Below are positions 1-28,215 of a stretch of DNA of 36,296 nucleotides, in pieces (position 1 is the stretch's first letter; every line of letters starts with the position of its first letter). Below the pieces are notes generated by a model. It ran no database searches. It was not told the origin of the DNA and worked only from the letters and a program-made list of their open reading frames with translations. The stretch comes from Chrysochromulina tobinii (lineage: Eukaryota): positions 1 through 36,296 of the forward strand of contig JWZX01001705.1 of NCBI GenBank assembly GCA_001275005.1, written 5' to 3'. The translations under genes and the position numbers were made by a program.

Positions 1-672
1 AGCGACAACATCTCGTCGGTGGCGTTTTCGCCCGATGGCACGAAGATTGTCTCAGGATCGTACGACAAGACGATCAAAGTCTGGGATTCGGGTGTGCCGG
101 AGCCCTCAAATCGCGCCTCCTTGGCCAAAACTGATGCCTGCTGGCTTGTCTGGCAGACAAACTTGAGATGCTGAGCGAGAAGACGAACGCCCACAGCCAC
201 TGGGTCATGTCGGTGGCGTTTTCCCCGGACGGGACCAAGATTGTGTCTGGATCGGGTGACAAGACGATCAAAGTTTGGGATTCGGGTGCGCCGCTAGCCC
301 TCAAATACGCCCCTCCTTGGCCAAACTGACGCCTGCTGACTTGTCTGGCAGGCAAACTGGAGCTGCTGAGCGAGAAAACGAACGCTCACAACAGCGTGGT
401 CACGTCAGTGGCGTTTTCCCCGGACGGGACCAAAATTGTGTCAGGATCGAACGACCCGACGATCAAAGTCTGGGATTCGGGTGCGCCAAAGCCCTCAAAA
501 TCGCCCCTCCTTGGCCAAACTGACGCCTGCTGGCTTGTCTGGCAGCCAAACTGGAGCTCCTGAGCAAGAAGACGAGTGCGCACAGCGACTACATCAACTC
601 GGTCGCGTTTTCCCCGGACGGGACCAGGATTGTCTCTGGATCGGACGACTGGACGATCAAAGTCTGGGATTT
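1..672 (+). repeat. Tandem ~194-195 bp exon+intron unit, about 3.5 copies
   Basis: Each unit is a 129-nt exon plus a 65-66-nt intron. All three introns share gccctcaaa..cctccttggccaaa(a)ctga(c/t)gcctgctg(g/a)cttgtctggcag. Confidence 0.95.
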
Positions 673-820
673 GGTCAAGTGGTCTCGCAAAGATCATTTG
701 ATGTTCAACGTCACCACACAGCGATTTGTCTTGCTGGTGCTGTGGCTGAACAAATACAGCATGAAGTTTCATGATGATGTGCTTGATCTGCTCATTGAAG
801 CTTGCTTGCAAAGCAGGTGA
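1..820 (+). CDS. 3' part of a WD40-repeat protein with highly conserved repeats; exons <1-91, 157-285, 352-480, 546-820
   Basis: Manual splicing at GT..AG introns 92-156, 286-351 and 481-545 gives continuous repeats of the form (K)[40 protein letters not shown]. These are followed by the tail [48 protein letters not shown] and TGA at 818-820. The ORF track misses it because of the introns. Confidence 0.9.
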
Positions 821-2190
821 GGCGGGGTGACGGCAACCGGGGGTGTCGCCATCTGATTTCAGCACAGTCTTTTGCTCGTGCGGCACGCCGAGGACAGGAT
901 GATAGACAGGACATGTTGGTAGGGAAGGAAGAGCCACTCTGCACATTCTGTGTGTGGCCCTGGCCGTCGTGTGTCTGTGTCTGTGTGGGCGACGTGCCGC
1001 ACACCGGCGCTGTCCACCTTCGACCTTGTGTGTTGAAAGACTTGTTGCGTAGCCCGGTGGACGCGTGCGAACTAGTGCGTTCACCGTTCTCACATTCTCA
1101 GAGTCTTCTCTCTTCCGTGCGGTGCCATTGGATTTGCGAGTCAACAACACTCCCTCCGGTTGACGTCGGCATGCAACATGCATACACAGCACGTCTGGTC
1201 ACGTCACGAGCCAGGTCCCGGGAGTGTCAGTGTGTAATATAACAATAAATAACGCTTGTAACGGTATTACGGTACATACACGTGCGGTCCGTAGACGGTA
1301 ACTAGAAGTACTTCCTTTATTGCTGTACCCACGAGCTGTATAAACCCCGACTACTGCGCATGCCATATCTTCTGGTGCCGAACGTTCTATTACAACAATT
1401 TTGGCATTTTCCATCATATCATGTAGTACATGTAATTCAAGACTTTACATTGAATTACATAGTCCACTGCTCCGCCTGCTTTGTTTCTCAGAGAAGTCCC
1501 AGGATTAAAACCACACACATGAAATGCTGACAGATGGAATCGATGCTGGCTGGACGTATGCGCTGTCGCCTACACGCCGGTATCCCCCCCAGCCCCACAC
1601 AGCCACACTACCCCGCGCGGCCCTCGCGCTGATGAGAAGGCAATGAAGAGAAACGCACTCAAATGATGGGAATGGTAACCTTCAGCAGGTTTAACTGAGG
1701 TGGGATGCATCAGTGGGATGCATGGCGGGTGAGTTTGTTTCTTGCAGCAGGTATAGTACCCGGGTACCACAAAAACACGTTCAAGAAGTCGAGCTCGTCG
1801 CAGAGCACGATCTCGTGCGAGGTCGCAAGCGTCGCAATCTTTGCGCCATCCGTGCCGTAGGAATTCCTGCGGGACGGTCAAGACTCAAGTTCTACATGCC
1901 ACGTTGCCCCACAGAGCGATTCACGATGCTAGCGGGATGAGGCCAACCCGGTACAAGGCAACCGAGAACGCTGAACGGGTATACATGAACATGTAGGCTC
2001 ACGGTCCAAACACCGTAAAGGATGAATAATTGTCAGATTTGTCAGTAGCACGTCGCGTAGCAGTAATAGAACAGAAACGCGACTACGGGGCGGGGGTAGC
2101 AGTGATAGAACAGAAACGTGGCGGGGGTCGGGGCGCAGACAGCCGTGCCAGAGCGCGGGGCCCCGCGATACGATCGCTAAGGGATACGCT

Positions 2191-3481: not shown

Positions 3482-4933
3482 ATGTTCCTCATCGCGGCTG
3501 CAGCGCTTTCATATGCTCCGGGCCTCACCCCGCCGGCGGTTTCCTCCCGCGTCTCCGCCGTCTCTATGAAGGGCTTTGACCAGGAGGTGCGAGACGTTGC
3601 CTTCGCAGCCGTGTCCTGGCAACTTTGAACAATCTCCAAATCTGTGCTGCAACTCCAGCCGGCATCGCATGCGCGCAAGCGTGCGTCAGTGCCCAACGCT
3701 GAGCCTCCATCGTCCGTGCCCCCCGCTCCGCAGCAATTCATCCAGCAGTCCAAGGATATGCGCCTCAAGCACCTTGAGGAGCAGGCGATGTTTGCCCTCA
3801 AGACCTCGTGTGAGAACTTCAACAAGGCCGTCTTCCCGAACGCGATGATTGCTGGCGACGTCGTCATCACGGACTTGCTCAGCCGTCTCGGCTACCTCGA
3901 GAACGGCAAGTGCACCATCATGTGCGTAGACACGTTCCACCTCTTCCCAGAGACGATGCCCTTCCTTGCAACCCTTGAGAAGAAGTACAAATTCAAGGCA
4001 GTGATCTTCGGCCCGGAGGGCGTGCCCGCGGGCGACAAGGCCGCTTTCGACAAGAAGTACGGTGAGAACCTGTGGCGCGAGGACATTGAGCAGTACGACA
4101 AGGTGTGCAAGGTCGAGCCCTTCGGCCGCGGCCTCAAGACGCTTGGTACGGACTGCATGATCAACGGGCGCACGCGCTGGCAGGGCTTCGAGCGCGCGTG
4201 GATCGACCAGTTCGAGAACGCGCCCGTCAACGGCGGCCTCGCCAAGTGCAACCCGCTCGCCTACTGGACGCTCGAGGACGTCTTCGACTACATCGCCAAG
4301 TACAAGGTGCCGTACCACCCGAGCCACGAGAACGGCTACCCGTCGCATGGCGATCTGAAGGACACGATCCCTGTGCCCTCCATGGACGAGCGCGCGAAGA
4401 AGCAGGAGGAGGGCTTCACGGCCTTCAAGGACTACAAGTGGGTGGGCGACAAGACCAAGTGGCTTGACTACGCGACGGAGCGGGTCGGCCGCTTCGTCGG
4501 CCTCAAAAACAAAGATGGCTCGACTAAGACGGAGTGCGGCATCCACGTTGCGGGCGCGGAGAAGACGTTTGACCGCGACCTGTGGGATAAGGCAGACAAC
4601 GTGAAGAACCTGATGACACCCGATGAGGTCGCCAAGGTGAGGGCCGCGGGCGAGGAGGCCATGCTTGTCGTCTACGCACCCTGGTGCAAGTTCTGCATGG
4701 CGATGGAGTCGGAGTACTCGAAGCTGTCGGCCGCGTCAGGCATCCCGACCTACAAGTTCCGTGGCGATGAGCAACGTGCGTACGTCGAGGAGAACCTGAA
4801 CACCAAATCCTTCCCCACGGTGAACTTCATTTCTGCCGACGGCACCGTCACCAAATACGAGTCAGAGAAGCGCTCGGTTGAGGACTTCAAGGCATTCATC
4901 AAGTCGAAGTCCAAGAGCAAGGTGTCCGCCTAA
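3482..4933 (+). CDS. APR: Plastid-targeted APS/PAPS reductase-family enzyme (APR-B-like, no FeS ligands) with a C-terminal thioredoxin-like domain; exons 3482-3586, 3734-4933
   Basis: Motifs VDTFHLFPET, KVEP, NPLAYWT, GYPSHG, ERVGRF and KTECGIH are present, then the Trx-like VVYAPWCKFC...SFPT. Exon 1 (MFLIAAAALSYAPGLTPPAVSSRVSAVSM) looks like a signal plus transit peptide. Intron GTGCGA..CCGCAG at 3587-3733 joins the exons in frame. Confidence 0.9.
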
Positions 4934-20558: not shown

Positions 20559-21377
20559 CTATGTCTCCACGCTCCTGAAGATCTGAGTGAAAGTTCCCTT
20601 GGGCGCGCGGTAGCCCTCGGGCAGCAGGCGCTGCTGCAGCCAGTTGAAGGCATATTGGCCGAGGGCCCCCATGTTCTTGCGCATGTTGAGCCAGCGCACG
20701 CCGTGCGAGCGCATCGCGTCGAGCAGCTCATTGGCCTCAGCCTCCGAGACGGCGTGCCGCTCGTGCAGCAGCCGCGCCTGCTCCGCGGTCACCGCCATGC
20801 TCGTGCGATCCTTGCCCGACTTGCAAGAGGTGATCCGTCCGCCACCAAGCTCGCGCACGAGCCGCTCAGTGAGCGCGATCACCTCGGTGTCCTTGTTGAC
20901 GAGCTCAACGGAGCGCAGGATGGTCGCCTCGACAGCATGCATCAGCTCGCGCAGTCGGCGCCGCTCGAGCTCCAAGTCGAACTTGGCGGTGCTCGAGATG
21001 CCATCTCGGTTGGAGATGCCATCTCGGTCGGCGATGCCATCTCGGGTGGCGGTGCTCGAGATTCCAACCGAGATGCCAACCCCCCGCCCACTGACCTCGC
21101 CCGAGCCTAAGGCCGTTGTCGTGTTGGACGCGGTGGAGGAGGCAAAGCTGATGTAAGCCTCGTGGTAGCGTCGCAGCAGCTCGAGTGCACGGCAGTTGAT
21201 GATCTCCTGCAGCTCCGCGTGCCCGACCGCGTTGGCCATGCTTTGCTGCGCGTTGATGCCCTGCGAGATCAGCGCGACGATACAGCGGATGAGCTGCCCT
21301 TGCTTGAGCTCTTCGGGCAGCTCGGCCCACCGCGCAGGCGGCATGAAGATCTCGAGCACGAGATTGCGGCTGCCGGG
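20559..21377 (-). CDS. C-terminal catalytic part of an inositol polyphosphate 4-phosphatase (INPP4-like); 5' part not found
   Basis: Contains the CX5R motif ITSCKSGKDRTSMAVT(AEQ), QGINAQQSMA, MRSHGVRWLNMRKN and YAFN..Q..LLPEGYRAP.GT. A candidate acceptor (ccggcag) ends at 21378. The Gly-rich N-terminus in the ORF track is the antisense of the SPPPP repeat. Confidence 0.85.
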   Translation of the reverse strand, partial: PGSRNLVLEIFMPPARWAELPEELKQGQLIRCIVALISQGINAQQSMANAVGHAELQEIINCRALELLRRYHEAYISFASSTASNTTTALGSGEVSGRGVGISVGISSTATRDGIADRDGISNRDGISSTAKFDLELERRRLRELMHAVEATILRSVELVNKDTEVIALTERLVRELGGGRITSCKSGKDRTSMAVTAEQARLLHERHAVSEAEANELLDAMRSHGVRWLNMRKNMGALGQYAFNWLQQRLLPEGYRAPKGTFTQIFRSVET

Positions 21378-21399
21378 CTGCCGGCCACGCGCACGTGCG

Positions 21400-21576
21400 C
21401 CACCGCCGCCCTCGCCGCCGCCGCCCTCGCCGCCGCCGCCTTCGCCGCCGCCGCCTTCGCCGCCGCCGCCCTCGCCGCCACCGCCCTCACCGCCGCCGCC
21501 CTCGCCACCGCCGCCCTCGCCACCGCCGCCCTCGCCACCGCCCTTGCCGCCGCCGCCCTCGCCACCGCCGCCCTCG
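21400..21576 (+). repeat. 15-nt tandem repeat encoding (SPPPP)n extensin-like linker
   Basis: About 11-12 copies of tcgcc(g/a)ccgccgccc. Confidence 0.95.
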
Positions 21577-24500
21577 ATGCCGCCCACGCAAATGGTGCGC
21601 GCGCTCGCGCTCCTCTACGAATCCTCGGGCGGCAACGCGTGGCGCAACAACTTCAAATGGATGTCCGGCGAGCCGTGTGTCGACGGCTGGTTTGGCGTGC
21701 ACTGCTGCCCCCAGGCGCTGCCGGTCCTGCGCGGGGACGACGAGTGCACCGCCGACGGCGTCGGAGCCACCGGCGTGCTCACGACGCAGGGCAGCGCCGC
21801 CTGCCACTCGGGCTCCGTCACGGGCACCGCCCTCGACCTCGCCACCTGCGTCGTCGTCAAGGTGCTGCTGCCGTCCAACAACCTGATCGGCTCACTCGAC
21901 GGCGCGCTCTGCGGGCTGCAAAACCTGCAGCACCTCGACCTCTCGGGCAACGCGCTGATCGGTGCGCTGCCGTCGACAGCAGACTGCCTGCCGCAGCTCA
22001 CGTCTCTTGACTTAACGGTACGACGGGGATGGGAAGATCCGGGCGGCTTTTCTGGCCACGTGCCCGAGTGGCTCCTCGATCGCCTCGACTTTATGGCGCC
22101 GCTGCGCCTCGCCAACAACGCCTTCCACGACCCGACGGCCGCCGAGTCCGCCGTAGCGATCAGCCGGCTCTGGCAGCGCTGCTCGACGCTCGGCGCGGAG
22201 CAGTGCTCGGGCGTCCCGCCGACTGGCTGCAGCGCTTTCAACCGCCAGGGCCAGCGCTACGAGGTGGAGCTCAACGGCCTCGGATGCGTGCGCTGCCCGA
22301 CGCCGCTCGAGGTTTTTGGCATCGCCGGTGGCGTTGCGGGCGGGGTGCTGCTCTTTGCGCTGCTCGTGGGCATGTACACGCGCTTCGTGCGCAGGCACCC
22401 GGAGTACGCCAAGACCCACGTCGCCTCGGGCATGATCCTCGTGGGCCACCTGCAGACGCTCTCCATCATCGGCAGCTTGCAGCTTGGCTGGCCGCTCATC
22501 ATCCAGGAGATCCTCGCGAGCATCAGCCTGCAGCTCATGGGCTACATCCCGTTGCCGTGCATCCTGACCGACCCGGTGCTCAAGGCGCTGCTGAGCTACG
22601 CGGAATCCGCCGTTGTGATGCTGCTGCTCGTGGGCGCCTGGCTCGTCGCGCGGCGCCGGCGCGACACGGACGGCCTGCTGCGCGAGAGCGAGGCGTGGGC
22701 CGAATACTTTCTGAGCGTGCTCTTCAGCCTGCTCTTTACTGTCGGCCTCCGTGCGAGCGCGACCCTCTTCGCGCGCTACGACGAGGACCAGTCTCGGCAG
22801 GTGACCTCCCGCTTTGTGGCGACGCTCCTCTGGTTCTTCTGGCTCTTCCTGTTCTGGCGCTTCCGCCGGCTGCTGCGCGAGGCCCAGGAGGCGGCGAGGG
22901 AGGCGGCGATGGAGGCTGCGAGAGATGTGCGGCTGCGGCGACGGGCGCGTCGCGCGGCAGAGGCGGTGCGCTACCTGACCGAGCGGTACGCGAGCGACGA
23001 CGGCCCTAGTCATGGTGACTTCCTGCTTTGGGCGGAAAAGCATATCGATGAACCCGTTCGCGATCTGCTGGCCAATGGCACCATCCGGCTGTTGCGCTGT
23101 GCGTGGTTGCTCTCAGCGGACTCGGACAAGTACCTGGGTCGCGATGCGTCCGGTAGGGTGATCATGCGCCGGCGGCAGGAGCTGCCCGAGGAGGCCTTCT
23201 TTACGAATGAAGAAGCGGTCGCGTTGCTCGATCGCGCCGACCGCTCGATTCTCGCCCTCTCCTATCGATGGCTGACCGCATTACATCCGGATCCGCACGG
23301 CATGGCGCTCCTCGCCGTGCGCCGCTTCCTCCGCAGCGAAGCCGGCCTCGACAAGTGCGGAATGTTTTGGGACTTCACCTCGCTTCCGCAGAAGGACATC
23401 ACCAATGGCCAACGTACGGACGATGAGAAAGACACCATGAAGCGCGGGCTTGCTGGTATGGGCAACTTTTACGCGAGCACGTGCGGCACGGCTGTCGTGC
23501 AGCTCAAGGACATCCCGCCGCGTCCGTCCGAGTACGACGGGCGGATGATCGTCTTCGATCAGGCGTTCTCCGAGTCGACGAGCGAGAAGGATGTGAAAGC
23601 CCTCCGAAGCGATCTCGAGCGCTCTGGAGGGAAGATCACCAAGATCGCCATCAAGGCGGGCGAAGCGCACGTGACCTTAGCAACTCACGAGCAGGCGAAA
23701 AACTGCATCGCTGCACTGCACAAGGTCGGCCGTGGTGCGGACACTGTGTACAACGAGACCGCCTATAGCCGCGGCGACGGGCGCATGATCGTCTTCGATG
23801 GCGAGTACTCCGAGAAGACGAGCGAGAAGGATGTGATCGCCGATCTCGAACGCTTCGGAGGGAAGATCGCTCTCAAGGCGGGCGAGGCGCAAGTGACCGC
23901 CATCAAGGCGGGCGAGGCGCAAGTGACCTTTGCAACGCACGAGCAAGCAGAGCGCTGCATCGCTGCACTGCGCAAGGTCGGCCGTCGTGCGGACACTGTG
24001 TACAACGAGCCGTTTACCTTTAGCGGCTGGTGCACTTTCGAGCAGGGCGTCTCGAAGATGGTGGCGGCGCACTTGAACAAGGCATCCCGCCAGGCCAAGG
24101 AGCGCTCGGCCGTGCTGCCGGAGCCCCTTTTGCGCGCCAATGCCAGCCGAGCCAAGGTCATTGACATTAGCGATGAGAAGGTGCGCAAAGTCGAAGTGAC
24201 GGAGTCTCCAGACGCACTCCTCAAGCAGACGAACGATGACCTCGGGAACGCAAAGTTTGTCGGCAAGGGCGAGGCCGTGACGGTCAAGCAGCAGCTCGCC
24301 AACTTCGAGTGGTCGATGAACATGGCCATGGAGCAGGCCACCGCCGAGCACGTTAGGAGGGAGCAGCTCGCTCGTGCACAGTGGCCACTCCGCTCGCAGT
24401 GGCAGCTCGTCGTGTGGACGCGGCAGGGGCTCCTCTTCCTCTTGTCCTTCGCCATGGACTGTGTGATGTGGCTATCGCCGTACGAGGCGCACCGGACCAC

Positions 24501-27500
24501 ACGCTACGTCTTTGCCGCGCTCGCGATCGCCGTCCTCGGCGGCTTCTGGCGGCTGCAGGCCCAGCGTCAGCCGTACGCGATGCGTCGGCAGCATAGGCTC
24601 GAAGTTTTCCTCTACGTGGTCGACATCCTCGTCATCTTCCTCGCCTGCCTGTACGGCGCACTCACGAACGACGGTGCGGTGCAGGACGCGTCCGGGCGGC
24701 TAGCGCTCGAGCTGGGCCTTGGCGCGCTGCTCATCGTCTCCGTGGTCGGTGCGGTGCTGGTCGTCGTGCGCGACGTCGTGCGCGAGCGCAGGTACATCCG
24801 GCAGCGGTACCTAAAGGCGACGCAGTTTTTCGACGTGCCGATCGTGGCCGCCATCCGCGACGGCGCAGTGCGCCTCATCGACTATGCCTGGTTGTTAGAT
24901 CCTGCGCGCTTGCGCTTGGATGATGGGCAGTTGCCGCGCGTCACTAAGGTGGAGGCACGCCTCCCTTCCAACGAGCCGACGAGCGCGCTGATTCGAAGGT
25001 TGGCGACGCACTGCGGGACCTCGTCCATCTGCATCACGGTGGGGACGGTTAAGGTGGCCTCGGCAGCCTCGCTACCCCCCTCGCCGCCTCCCTCTCCTCC
25101 GGAGGTGGCTGCCTCGGATAGAGAGCTCGAGGATTGGTCTTTCCCTGGGCTCAAGACTCGCTTCAAAAACGAGCTGGCCGAAGCGGACCTTGCGCAGCTC
25201 GCGCCCGCGATCATTGAGAAGCTTGGCATCCGATCTGTGGAAAAGCTCCGCGAGTTCAAATTCGACGAGCTCAAGGACAAACTCAAGGCCGCGGCCGGCG
25301 TGACACTCAGACCGGGGCATACCAAGAAGCTCAAGGCGTTTCTCGCCAAGCCTAGTGGCACGGAACTCGTCTCCATTCGGACGATCGTGAGCGAGCGCAC
25401 GAAAGGTTCGCCCGCTCAAAGCTCGACGGCGCTTGCACCGCGCAGCGGCGCGTACCTAGCAAGCCAGCCACTCTACCACAACGACTCGTATCCGTTGCAT
25501 GAGTCGCCGCTGCAGCCACAAAGATCACGATCGGCCGAGCACGACAGCGAGCGCAACGAGTCGGCCCACGACCACGCCAAGTCAATGCCGGGGCGCGCCA
25601 CTTGGAACGGCTCGCCACCTCCATCCAAGGTCACAACCAGCGCTCTGCCGAATACAGTAGACATAACCTTCCACCTCAGCACGTTTGACGAGGCCGCCCC
25701 GCTCACCGCAGCCGGCCTGCGCCGCAAGGCCGTGGAGGTTCGCGACAGGCTAGTTGAGCTTGGGGCCACGGACGTCCACATTGTCACGGGCGCGCTTTTT
25801 CTCCCACGCTGCCAGGATATGCCGTCGAAAGCCTTCCTGCCACCCGAGCGCGCCGCGGACCTCTTTGCGCGGGGGTGCCGCAGAGTTGACGTCGTCAGCT
25901 ATTGCCGGCGCAGCCCTGGCGTGCCCGACCACGATGGCCGCACGCTCGAAACGATCCTCAACCACGCGAAGAATGTGAAGGGCGCAGACGGTGACCGCGG
26001 TCTGTTCGTGGACTTTGCGTGCATCCCGCAGACCTTTGCATGGCCGTCGTGGCACGCCCCGGAGACGGTCCCGCTGCGCTTCGGCGCCGAGGTGGACCAG
26101 GGCGCCGAGGTGGACCAGGGAAAGCTCAAAGTGCTCAAGTTTGAATTGGAGCACGTCGCCACGGAGGACGAGGCGCAGGTTTGCGTCGACAAGCTCGTCT
26201 CCGTATGCGAGGAGCAAAAGTGGGCGCTGGCCTCCATTGCGGACTTGGAGGGCGTCGGCCTGCGCTCACGCCGTGCGCTCTTCCACGGACGTTACATCTC
26301 CGGCGCGTACCGCTTCGACGAGGGAGCCGATGCCGAAGGCTTCGTGCGTTTCAGCGAGGAGAAGGACGCGGAGAAGGCACGGCGCCATCCCGAGCTCGTG
26401 CGCATGTGCCGCGGCAAGGAGCCAAAGCTGATGGGCGAGCGCGTCTTCGAGAATGAGCTCAAGTCTCGCCGCGCCCTCTCCGTCATGGGCAGCCTCTACG
26501 CGTCCGCCACAGGCACCTGTGTGCTGCAGCTCACGGACCCGCCGGTGCTGCAGCTCACGGACCCGCCGGGCGAGCTCGGGGACGACAACGAGCTCGTCTC
26601 CGAGCACACGGGGACCGTCTTCGTCGTGGAGCTTGAGAAGCTGCAGAAGCTGCAGAAGCTGCAGAAGACGCTCAAGGAGCTGCAGAAGGCGCTGCAGAAC
26701 GAGCTGGGTGACAAGTCGCTCGAGGAGCTGCAGAAGGAGCTGCAGAAGGAGCTGCAGAAGGAGCTGCAGAAGCTGCAGAAGGAGCAGAAGACGCTCAAGG
26801 AGCTGCAGGAGAAGCTGGTCGGCGAGTTGCGCAGCTTCTTTGGCAGCTTCTTCTGCGGCAAGTCGCTCAAGGAGCTACAGAAGGCGCCTAAGGAGCTGCA
26901 GAAGGAGCAGAAGGAGCAGAAGGAGCAGCAACTGCAGCAGCTGCAGAAGCTGCAGAAGCTGCAGAAGTCGCTCGAAAAGCTGCAGAAAGAGCTGGTCGGC
27001 GAGTTGCGCAGCTTCTTTGGCAGCTTCTTCTGCAGCAAGTCGCTCAAGGAGCTACAGAAGGCGCTGCAGAAGGCGCTGCAGAACGAGCTGGGTGACAAGC
27101 CGCTCGAGGAGCTGCAGAAGGCGCTGCAGAAGGAGCTGGGCGACGGCGGCGTGCTGGCTTGCGAGAAGAAGGGGTCGGCGGGTGTAGTAGTGGTGCGTGT
27201 CCTCGGGGAGAAGGCGGCGCGCGCCGCGCGCTCACTGAGCGAGGGCGGCTATCCACTTCGTCGTAAGGATCGCGTGGTGTACCCAATGCGCAACTTGGGG
27301 CCGTACGGCTCGTGCGGGTGGCCGACCTTTGAGACGGCCGCCGCCTCGATTGTGCTCGCGCACCTCACGCAGCACAAGCGGGGGGATGGGGCGCTTCCGC
27401 CTGCCGTCGCGCAGGCGGAGAAGAGCAGTCCAAAGCTCATCAACATCGACACCATCGACCGGAAGGTGGTCGCGCAGTCGCCAGAGCGCCTCCTCCGCGA

Positions 27501-28215
27501 GTGCGAAAAGGGTCTGTGCGCGTCTCCCTTCGGACGCTGGCGACCTCCTCCATGCGCGTTTGTGTGTGCGGAGGAGGCGCAGTCGGCAGAGCGCCTCCTC
27601 CGCGAGTGCAAGTTGAAATTGCGCTCCAAGCGGATCTTTTTCACCGGGGAAGCCGAGCGGAAGCAGGTCGTCCAGCTGCTCTCCGACTTTGAGGACTTGA
27701 TCGCGCTCGAGTTTGACCAGAAGCGCCCCGAGCACCTCAAGCTCAGGACGGAGGACCTCGAGCACGCGCACACCGCGGAGCTGCGCGAGGCGCGCAGGAG
27801 GCGATCCCGCAAGGAGCAGGAGAGCCTCCGAAGACACGTGGAGGATGAGCCGACGCACACAAGCTACGCCAAGACCGAGGTCGCCACTAAGGATCCGTTG
27901 CGCAAATCGGCGCGACTGTCTGCGACTCCATCTCTTCACCTGCTTCCACAGAAGTTGCCAGCGCCCCAGCGCTACCCCATCGCCAGCAGAGTGTTTGTGA
28001 CACGCAACAACGGAGCGGAGACTCTCGCCTATGTCAAAGCGTACGATGCCGTGCAGCAAAAATACACGGTGGAGCTCGAACAGCTTGACTCTAAGAAGTT
28101 CAAGAAGTGCGACGAAACATCGCTGCGAGAGTTCAACGTATTAGGGGTTATCCTTATCTCTGCACGCGATATGTTCCGCCCTGCACGCGTCGACGATGAC
28201 CTCTTCGATGCATAG
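21400..28215 (+). CDS. Giant receptor-like membrane protein: SPPPP linker - LRRNT/LRR - ~9 TM with an inserted HET-like module - second HET-like module with SAM-like, RRM-like and coiled-coil inserts - C-terminal SH3/Tudor-like barrel; 5' end uncertain
   Basis: LRRNT (ALALLYESSGGNAW..W..GEPC..WFGVHC) and plant-type LRRs (LPSNNLIGSL, LDLSGNALIGALP) are present, with hydrophobic helices at 22312-22860 and 24400-24780. HET-like motifs occur twice: SYRWL..HPDP/FWDFTSLPQ/MGNFYA/GWCTFE and SYC../FVDFACIPQ/MGSLYA/GWPTFE. The frame is uninterrupted for 6.8 kb. Confidence 0.8.
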   Translation, partial: PPPPSPPPPSPPPPSPPPPSPPPPSPPPPSPPPPSPPPPSPPPPSPPPLPPPPSPPPPSMPPTQMVRALALLYESSGGNAWRNNFKWMSGEPCVDGWFGVHCCPQALPVLRGDDECTADGVGATGVLTTQGSAACHSGSVTGTALDLATCVVVKVLLPSNNLIGSLDGALCGLQNLQHLDLSGNALIGALPSTADCLPQLTSLDLTVRRGWEDPGGFSGHVPEWLLDRLDFMAPLRLANNAFHDPTAAESAVAISRLWQRCSTLGAEQCSGVPPTGCSAFNRQGQRYEVELNGLGCVRCPTPLEVFGIAGGVAGGVLLFALLVGMYTRFVRRHPEYAKTHVASGMILVGHLQTLSIIGSLQLGWPLIIQEILASISLQLMGYIPLPCILTDPVLKALLSYAESAVVMLLLVGAWLVARRRRDTDGLLRESEAWAEYFLSVLFSLLFTVGLRASATLFARYDEDQSRQVTSRFVATLLWFFWLFLFWRFRRLLREAQEAAREAAMEAARDVRLRRRARRAAEAVRYLTERYASDDGPSHGDFLLWAEKHIDEPVRDLLANGTIRLLRCAWLLSADSDKYLGRDASGRVIMRRRQELPEEAFFTNEEAVALLDRADRSILALSYRWLTALHPDPHGMALLAVRRFLRSEAGLDKCGMFWDFTSLPQKDITNGQRTDDEKDTMKRGLAGMGNFYASTCGTAVVQLKDIPPRPSEYDGRMIVFDQAFSESTSEKDVKALRSDLERSGGKITKIAIKAGEAHVTLATHEQAKNCIAALHKVGRGADTVYNETAYSRGDGRMIVFDGEYSEKTSEKDVIADLERFGGKIALKAGEAQVTAIKAGEAQVTFATHEQAERCIAALRKVGRRADTVYNEPFTFSGWCTFEQGVSKMVAAHLNKASRQAKERSAVLPEPLLRANASRAKVIDISDEKVRKVEVTESPDALLKQTNDDLGNAKFVGKGEAVTVKQQLANFEWSMNMAMEQATAEHVRREQLARAQWPLRSQWQLVVWTRQGLLFLLSFAMDCVMWLSPYEAHRTTRYVFAALAIAVLGGFWRLQAQRQPYAMRRQHRLEVFLYVVDILVIFLACLYGALTNDGAVQDASGRLALELGLGALLIVSVVGAVLVVVRDVVRERRYIRQRYLKATQFFDVPIVAAIRDGAVRLIDYAWLLDPARLRLDDGQLPRVTKVEARLPSNEPTSALIRRLATHCGTSSICITVGTVKVASAASLPPSPPPSPPEVAASDRELEDWSFPGLKTRFKNELAEADLAQLAPAIIEKLGIRSVEKLREFKFDELKDKLKAAAGVTLRPGHTKKLKAFLAKPSGTELVSIRTIVSERTKGSPAQSSTALAPRSGAYLASQPLYHNDSYPLHESPLQPQRSRSAEHDSERNESAHDHAKSMPGRATWNGSPPPSKVTTSALPNTVDITFHLSTFDEAAPLTAAGLRRKAVEVRDRLVELGATDVHIVTGALFLPRCQDMPSKAFLPPERAADLFARGCRRVDVVSYCRRSPGVPDHDGRTLETILNHAKNVKGADGDRGLFVDFACIPQTFAWPSWHAPETVPLRFGAEVDQGAEVDQGKLKVLKFELEHVATEDEAQVCVDKLVSVCEEQKWALASIADLEGVGLRSRRALFHGRYISGAYRFDEGADAEGFVRFSEEKDAEKARRHPELVRMCRGKEPKLMGERVFENELKSRRALSVMGSLYASATGTCVLQLTDPPVLQLTDPPGELGDDNELVSEHTGTVFVVELEKLQKLQKLQKTLKELQKALQNELGDKSLEELQKELQKELQKELQKLQKEQKTLKELQEKLVGELRSFFGSFFCGKSLKELQKAPKELQKEQKEQKEQQLQQLQKLQKLQKSLEKLQKELVGELRSFFGSFFCSKSLKELQKALQKALQNELGDKPLEELQKALQKELGDGGVLACEKKGSAGVVVVRVLGEKAARAARSLSEGGYPLRRKDRVVYPMRNLGPYGSCGWPTFETAAASIVLAHLTQHKRGDGALPPAVAQAEKSSPKLINIDTIDRKVVAQSPERLLRECEKGLCASPFGRWRPPPCAFVCAEEAQSAERLLRECKLKLRSKRIFFTGEAERKQVVQLLSDFEDLIALEFDQKRPEHLKLRTEDLEHAHTAELREARRRRSRKEQESLRRHVEDEPTHTSYAKTEVATKDPLRKSARLSATPSLHLLPQKLPAPQRYPIASRVFVTRNNGAETLAYVKAYDAVQQKYTVELEQLDSKKFKKCDETSLREFNVLGVILISARDMFRPARVDDDLFDA
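26630..27140 (+). repeat. Coding 9/12-nt microrepeats (LQK/ELQK) with a nested ~177-nt duplication
   Basis: ctgcagaag and gagctgcagaag arrays. The block ggcgagttgcgcagcttctttggcagcttcttctgc occurs at 26821 and 26998. Confidence 0.9.

Follow-up and report, generated by a model that had tools for sequence, protein, structure and literature searches.

A seven-blade WD40 gene of Chrysochromulina tobinii with a cassette pool common to NACHT-WD40 genes and a likely role in recognition

The DNA analyzed here (the window, 36,296 nt in all) opens with an array of WD40 repeats separated by similar short introns, which raises the question of what gene the array belongs to and whether its repeats form a recognition module that diversifies by exchange, as a sequence-only reading had proposed. 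We favor, with a probability of roughly 0.7, the interpretation that the array is part of a seven-blade WD40 gene drawing on a cassette pool common with NACHT-WD40 genes, that the cassettes are swapped by recombination, and that codons of the predicted binding face diversify, likely in the service of recognizing foreign proteins that themselves change.

Gene structure and splicing at the locus

Positions 1–820 of the window form the 3' end of a gene that is expressed and spliced and contains seven WD40 exons and a conserved 48-residue helical tail. Tandem Repeats Finder reports a 194-nt period in 3.4 copies (score 914) at 1–672. The introns at 92–156, 286–351 and 481–545 (65, 66 and 65 nt; all on the forward strand, as are the exons) run from GT to AG and are all in phase 1, as had been proposed; their removal leaves a single open frame of four WD40 repeats, tail and stop. 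Pairwise identity is 88–91% between introns and 79–85% between exon units, and the earlier description of the introns as nearly identical is thus apt in substance and somewhat strong in wording. No second copy of the cassette was found elsewhere in the 36,296 nt.

The upstream part of the gene was read from L118, a metagenome stretch identical to the window over 829/829 nt (L-numbers denote stretches recovered with the intron motif, unless another source is given). L118 adds three upstream units, giving seven WD exons in total, and puts the ATG some 630 nt upstream of window position 1, where it opens the first WD exon. Upstream of the ATG, genes of this class carry UTR exons, with about 400–550 nt common to relatives; transcript L046 identifies this shared stretch as spliced UTR. 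Because the ATG sits in the first WD exon, after the UTR exons, the window gene has no coding sequence before that exon and contains no NACHT, NB-ARC, HET or kinase domain. The upstream domain of this kind that had been suggested is therefore absent, NACHT being found in a sister class only.

Unit 4 of seven is represented by the last 91 of its 129 nt at 1–91, with variable codons at 4, 7, 13, 61 and 67 encoding D, N, S, Y and K. Units 5 (157–285; codons at 198, 201, 207, 255 and 261, encoding H, W, M, G and K) and 6 (352–480; codons at 393, 396, 402, 450 and 456, encoding S, V, T, N and P) are exons of 129 nt each. Unit 7 is the WD40 part of the terminal exon (546–673; codons at 587, 590, 596, 644 and 650, encoding D, Y, N, D and W; Pfam WD40, E 1.1e-12). 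The rule of one 129-nt exon per repeat accordingly holds for the two full exons in the window; the first is truncated by the window start and is 129 nt long in L118, and the last is not a cassette, since it lacks a donor and extends into 48 codons of tail and the TGA at 818–820. This tail (674–820 with the stop), predicted to form three helices, marks the stand-alone seven-blade class. Compared with long proteins, the last exon matched nothing but WD40 proteins of a generic bacterial or fungal kind; no Rfam match was obtained in the window, and no stable RNA fold of the introns was found (z 0.0–1.5). In exon codons 36–41 (e.g. 70–88) synonymous sites are unusually invariant (pS 0.02–0.10), possibly as a splicing signal or a preferred crossover zone.

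Transcript data support the view that the cassette introns are spliced, as the sequence-only reading had assumed, and that the gene family is expressed. At 80% likeness, 190–393 contigs per RNA run fall on window positions 1–1300, and in 4/4 runs intron 1 corresponds to a GT..AG joint of 65 nt, although this may come from paralogues because its short sides measure only 18–25 nt. At 98% likeness on L118, two of three RNA runs contain contigs identical to window 545–606 whose upstream continuation is an exon end. Both runs also show a canonical 65-nt joint that connects unit 2 to unit 3, and a link of the first coding exon with the sequence before it; none of the contig joints listed at this likeness in the three runs is a junction of window intron 1 or 2. 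The RNA contigs L046, L075 and L079 show 129/132-nt spacing, consecutive units and some retained introns, the retention being selected for because these contigs were found via the intron motif. Among the matches listed, 196 of 206 distinct introns contain a branch-point-like CTRAY, and retention would break the frame or add a stop in 193.

The neighborhood of the array is ordinary. An adenylylsulfate reductase ORF lies at 3629–4933; it is 100% identical over the query to a protein whose 90% cluster includes KOO32680.1 of Chrysochromulina tobinii, and we accordingly take the host to be this species or a very close relative. The other neighbors in 3629–35421 include an OSCA/TMEM63-like channel, NudC, a dual-specificity phosphatase, CLASP, a fasciclin, a glycosyltransferase and a pyridoxamine-oxidase-like protein; no defence cluster surrounds the array in this interval. 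A 2,348-codon ORF at 21169–28215 (+) has weak LRR matches and proline-rich and coiled-coil tandem repeats.

Two gene classes and a conserved tail

Scanning metagenome contigs with the intron motif, a genome-wide check that the sequence-only reading had called for, recovered at least 129 stretches, and the cassette is therefore multi-locus. The runs that hold the window stretch are freshwater and mixed-culture metagenomes, and all arrays are short-read assemblies. One set of assemblies that have identical arrays in common contains at least 34 array groups, a few of these being pieces of a single gene, and we put the family at about thirty arrays as a lower bound. The motif is absent from the viral and prokaryote collections. 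The family is easily missed, because prokaryote-style gene callers break its genes into 90-residue fragments. A mobile element was considered and rejected, since the homologous stretches lack fixed ends, with homology fading 0–150 nt past the stop and 10–700 nt upstream.

Two classes of gene carry the cassettes. Class B, that of the window gene, comprises stand-alone WD40 genes with the tail and without NACHT, whose flanks are mutually unrelated. The 21 non-redundant complete class B genes listed have seven units in 14 cases, six in three, five in two, and eight and three in one each, counted with an anchor that misses some divergent units and so undercounts. In class A, an exon of 1,000–1,300 codons is spliced via the same intron into 2–10 cassettes and a different tail. 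Eight class A long ORFs were compared with Pfam at its cut-offs, which were passed by NPHP3_N in 7/8, NACHT in 4/8 and APAF1_C in 7/8.

Seven of the NACHT-WD40 genes (L004:142-3903 (+), and also L011, L014, L015, L033, L050 and L069), which have variable N-termini, carry a RelA/SpoT-like insert within the NTPase module, where it separates the P-loop domain from the winged-helix/APAF1-like helical region. The insert matches the alarmone synthetase Tas1 (6ox6; E 1.2e-4, 107 residues) and no Pfam family; its single-sequence AlphaFold model (pLDDT 38) is unusable. The putative catalytic motifs of the synthetase are kept in the insert of all seven genes. A second, unrelated and weakly scoring NACHT-type gene, L040:2776-6720 (+), is built with the same cassettes. 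Its N-terminal region carries putative HET/TIR-like motifs that searches did not confirm; the N-terminal domain has no PDB match, and its Atlas leads stay under 0.9. In L015:2214-6791 (+), the winged-helix/helical region is duplicated internally and an extra unassigned domain is present; 1.3 kb before its array, L015 also has an intron of the cassette family.

The class B tail is conserved (pN 0.057 against pS 0.221 in 33 tails) and is modeled as three helices (pLDDT 81.5). It is present in 576 protein clusters (E up to 1), and divergent tails, down to 38% identity, likewise come after a WD40 repeat. Tail codon 33 (770–772) encodes His here, in a column that is a nearly invariant Pro in 16 of 17 other aligned copies; close to it, at L118 position 59, one poly(A) RNA run and one lake DNA run have a different base. 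Only one helix follows the Pro. Searches assigned the tail to no family in Pfam (18 members) or NCBIfam and gave no meaningful sequence match in the PDB, no match in the ESM Atlas and no Foldseek match in PDB and viral libraries, a 48-residue module being too small for profile or fold searches to decide a box family. A VIA fold search reached at best Z 4.9, and the best 50 matches listed include neither F-box nor SOCS entries; all 17 matches among 1.84 billion representatives were family-like fragments except one spurious repeat protein.

In WSB-type WD40-SOCS box proteins and in poxviral ANK-PRANC/F-box proteins, which are E3-ligase adaptors, repeats are followed by a C-terminal box. In the window gene, too, a short, conserved module of C-terminal helices comes after the repeats, and its last helix (F/L-P-D/E-D/E-V/I/L-L-D-L-L-I) is reminiscent of the first F-box helix, a likeness that we treat as a lead only. 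Inspection by eye revealed no BC-box motif in the tail, and a complex predicted with a stand-in Skp1, taken from a viral-collection contig, scored 0.11 against a mark of 0.34, which speaks neither for nor against binding. Five viral-collection records (L128–L132) hold Skp1 genes, four of them apparently interrupted near the 3' end. The tail could act as a constant docking module coupling binding to an output. A bolder version, which we regard as speculative, is a two-armed immune repertoire diversified by recombination and supplied from one pool. Seven-blade proteins whose tail recruits a ubiquitin ligase to the target of the variable face, and NACHT receptors whose internal RelA/SpoT-like domain makes a nucleotide alarm, would pass specificities to each other by conversion.

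Variable codons and exchange of cassettes

Our preferred reading, that of a shared and recombining cassette pool with diversifying binding-face codons, depends in the first place on where the units vary. The two variable spots noticed in the sequence-only reading resolve into five hypervariable exon codons, 14, 15, 17, 33 and 35 (His = 12), with entropies of 2.4–3.9 bits in the 278 distinct exon cores listed; next come codon 42 (1.9 bits, confounded by terminal exons) and the linker codons 1, 3 and 4 (1.2–1.6 bits). The same listed cores contain 239 distinct five-residue combinations, and none of 332 listed cores has a stop in codons 13–42. Passages of two papers on the fungal repeats give the HNWD variable positions as 11, 12, 14, 30 and 32 (PMC12222747) and map the selected HET-E pairs 7/9 and 25/27 to the top of the propeller (PMC1805685). 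The spacing of our five codons equals that of both sets, which bears out the proposed correspondence with HET-E, and the predicted location of these codons is the binding face of the propeller.

Diversifying selection at these codons is likely but not proven, as a dN/dS above 1 depends on the method and emerges from two of three analyses. The first is parsimony on a tree, in which dN over framework dS is 2.2–3.0 at the five codons and 0–0.92 at the other 36 of 41, with counts that recombination inflates. The second compares close exon pairs, in which the hotspot nonsynonymous/synonymous rate is 0.8–1.2 for the closest (28 edges, p 0.34, not significant), 0.9–1.3 for 50 edges (p 0.08, not significant) and 1.2–1.8 in the wider set of 149 edges (p 1e-15). 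The third, a codon model on the hotspots alone with their own branch lengths, gives an omega of 0.61–0.65 against 0.14 for the framework, in a saturated partition. Pairwise rates are pN 0.47–0.62 and pS 0.28–0.40 at the hotspots, and pS 0.09–0.37 and pN 0.01–0.10 in the framework. Local hypermutation was rejected as a source of the variation: the parsimony dS of hotspot and framework are close (31 and 26), and codon 16, between the hotspots, has a low dS.

Neutral drift, in which the repeats would be young and homogenised and five surface codons simply unconstrained, with no diversifying selection or recognition role, is the strongest of the opposing explanations and in our judgment an unlikely one. 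It would accommodate the hotspot-only omega, the ratio near 1 in close pairs and the youth of the family (pS 0.22 for the tail and 0.10 for NACHT). It sits poorly with parsimony ratios that rise at precisely these five codons while other exposed linker codons remain below 1, with the wider close-pair test, with 85 multi-nucleotide changes in the five codons against 23 in the other 36, and with a codon spacing that is that of the sites selected in fungi.

Returning to the shared pool, we compared 153 units from 25 arrays (18 class B and seven class A). Framework distance is 0.108 within a gene, 0.105 at the same position, 0.106 at other positions and 0.111 across classes (range 0.105–0.115), and units do not cluster by gene, position or class (permutation p 0.26, 0.76 and 0.15). 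The nearest neighbor of a unit lies in the other class for 69 units, at another position for 60, in the same gene for 14 and at the same position for 10. Window unit 4 and the intron before it, 193 nt in total, match cassette 1 of the NACHT gene L033 at every position, a cassette that recurs unchanged in L119 and L123 (three records in all); about ten further identical tracts of 190–230 nt link different genes, and L013 and L045 have two common units in opposite order. These comparisons make exchange of cassettes between genes likely.

Five likely allele pairs have tails that are 96–100% identical and last exons that are 83–88% identical. In four of the five the stretch next to the tail is 98–99.6% identical, and matching flanks are 90–99% identical over 0.5–3 kb, a level at which some pairs may be recent paralogues. 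The likely alleles L024 and L037 have none of their seven hotspot combinations in common; Two pairs are counter-examples to this divergence: L049 and L101, with unchanged hotspots, and L020 and L041, which are 99% identical (4 mismatches in 989 nt) apart from one whole cassette that is missing from L041, the break falling inside an intron. The latter case agrees with the whole-repeat swapping envisaged in the sequence-only reading, but exchange is not confined to whole exons, because the two variable patches reassort within an exon: among pairs sharing the 12-nt first patch the second differs in 152/185, both being shared in 33 against 5.6 expected, segment distances within exons correlate weakly (Mantel r ≤0.12), and multi-nucleotide changes gather in the five codons. 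The companion claim that the introns are specially conserved was rejected: array introns diverge by 0.12–0.13 whatever the exon distance, the single-copy UTR intron having a median of 0.128, and they are therefore best regarded as homologous substrate.

Mis-joining of near-identical repeats by assemblers, the true arrays being stable, is slightly less probable still than drift. Identical tracts of 193 nt are longer than usual reads and k-mers, L061 and L107 differ in unit order, and parts of PMC12222747 describe short-read assembly as unreliable for HNWD-type repeats. Against this, 14 of 18 replicate array pairs agree fully in all units compared and in their order (four do not, one of them with a changed order), which indicates reproducible assembly, even though assemblers can repeat one error, and which also argues against rapid programmed rearrangement at the consensus level. 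Likewise, the window equals L118 over its 829 nt, transcript contig L046 keeps the unit order of genomic L042, and the 576 tail-bearing clusters yielded, from 120 fetched, 107 parsed terminal exons with 94 hotspot combinations. Improbable, finally, is diversity created mainly at the RNA level by skipping of symmetric exons: a frame bounded throughout by phase-1 introns would survive a skip, RNA contig joints skip 260 and 649 nt, and brown-algal ROCO genes do so according to sections of PMC11378527, but those joints have a 24–30-nt short side common to all units and are explained by paralogues (contigs cannot phase exon ends common to all units), one skip would leave six blades where exactly seven units are found in 14/21 genes listed, and in the three contigs that are partly spliced the units follow one another and introns are retained.

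For the favored interpretation we propose the following mechanism. Similar cassettes of a germ-line repeat pool would undergo homologous recombination within and between unlinked genes, through gene conversion and unequal crossing-over, in tracts as short as a few codons and as long as one cassette. Thanks to the symmetric phase-1 introns, whole cassettes could move without frameshift, and shorter tracts would reassort the two variable patches. Selection for a closed propeller may hold the unit count near seven and keep the scaffold, while selection by viruses or other antagonists may favor new binding-face residues. In proteins of the NACHT class, binding would act as a switch for the NTPase and the RelA/SpoT-like insert within it.

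Comparison with known repeat systems

The fungal HNWD/NWD genes are the closest parallel. Very similar WD40 repeats of one pool occur in the unlinked genes het-d, het-e, het-r and nwd of Podospora anserina, as set out in portions of PMC1805685, PMC12222747 and PMC13449251. Internally conserved repeats (framework distance here about 0.11), hypervariable codons spaced as in HET-E, some repeats that are identical between genes, and repeat exchange (here from short-read assemblies) are common to both; the NACHT-WD40 architecture is matched by class A only. The fungal repeat is 126 bp of coding sequence, whereas here the exon comes with its own 65-nt intron. Moreover, neither NACHT nor HET is present in the window gene or in most of the family, where the 48-residue tail forms the end, the unit number here centres on seven, and a haptophyte is compared with a fungus.

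The brown-algal ROCO-LRR and NB-ARC-TPR genes of Ectocarpus and Saccharina have single-repeat symmetric exons, exon turnover and a selected presumed binding face, as reported in parts of PMC3341825 and PMC11378527. The haptophyte cassette likewise has one repeat per symmetric exon. However, (i) the brown-algal proteins form LRR or TPR solenoids, and a closed WD40 propeller is expected here; (ii) ROC-COR and NB-ARC are absent here, where the NTPase is of NACHT type or missing; (iii) the short intron here belongs to the homologous unit, and exchange also cuts within exons; and (iv) alternative splicing of repeat exons is a feature of the brown-algal genes. Fungal NLRs that combine RelA_SpoT, NACHT and WD40, listed in table rows of PMC4986451, resemble class A with its Tas1-like domain, NACHT and WD40, although the RelA/SpoT-like domain serves as N-terminal effector in the fungi, lies inside the NTPase module in class A and is absent from the window gene.

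The cassette system thus resembles HNWD repeats combined with brown-algal one-repeat-per-exon genes and is a member of neither. New here is that, in a unicellular alga, NACHT genes and genes without any NTPase have intron-bearing WD40 cassettes in common. Searches of the open literature found no account of the cassette family in haptophytes, although a brief earlier mention may exist. By analogy with the fungal and brown-algal genes, and given the cassettes shared with NACHT genes, we infer a role in defence.

Little is known of how unicellular algae defend themselves inside the cell against giant viruses and other antagonists. The family is a concrete and expressed candidate repertoire from a haptophyte that can be cultured; its variable residues are defined, and natural alleles occur in lakes. 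It also brings to light a conserved tail that had gone unannotated and a RelA/SpoT-like domain lying inside the NTPase. It joins two strategies so far described apart, the WD40 repeat exchange of fungi and the one-repeat-per-exon organization of brown algae, and places recognition cassettes in NLR-like and NTPase-less genes alike. If the cassettes are indeed swapped between genes, the alga would possess a self-diversifying set of recognition proteins with a likely use in defence.
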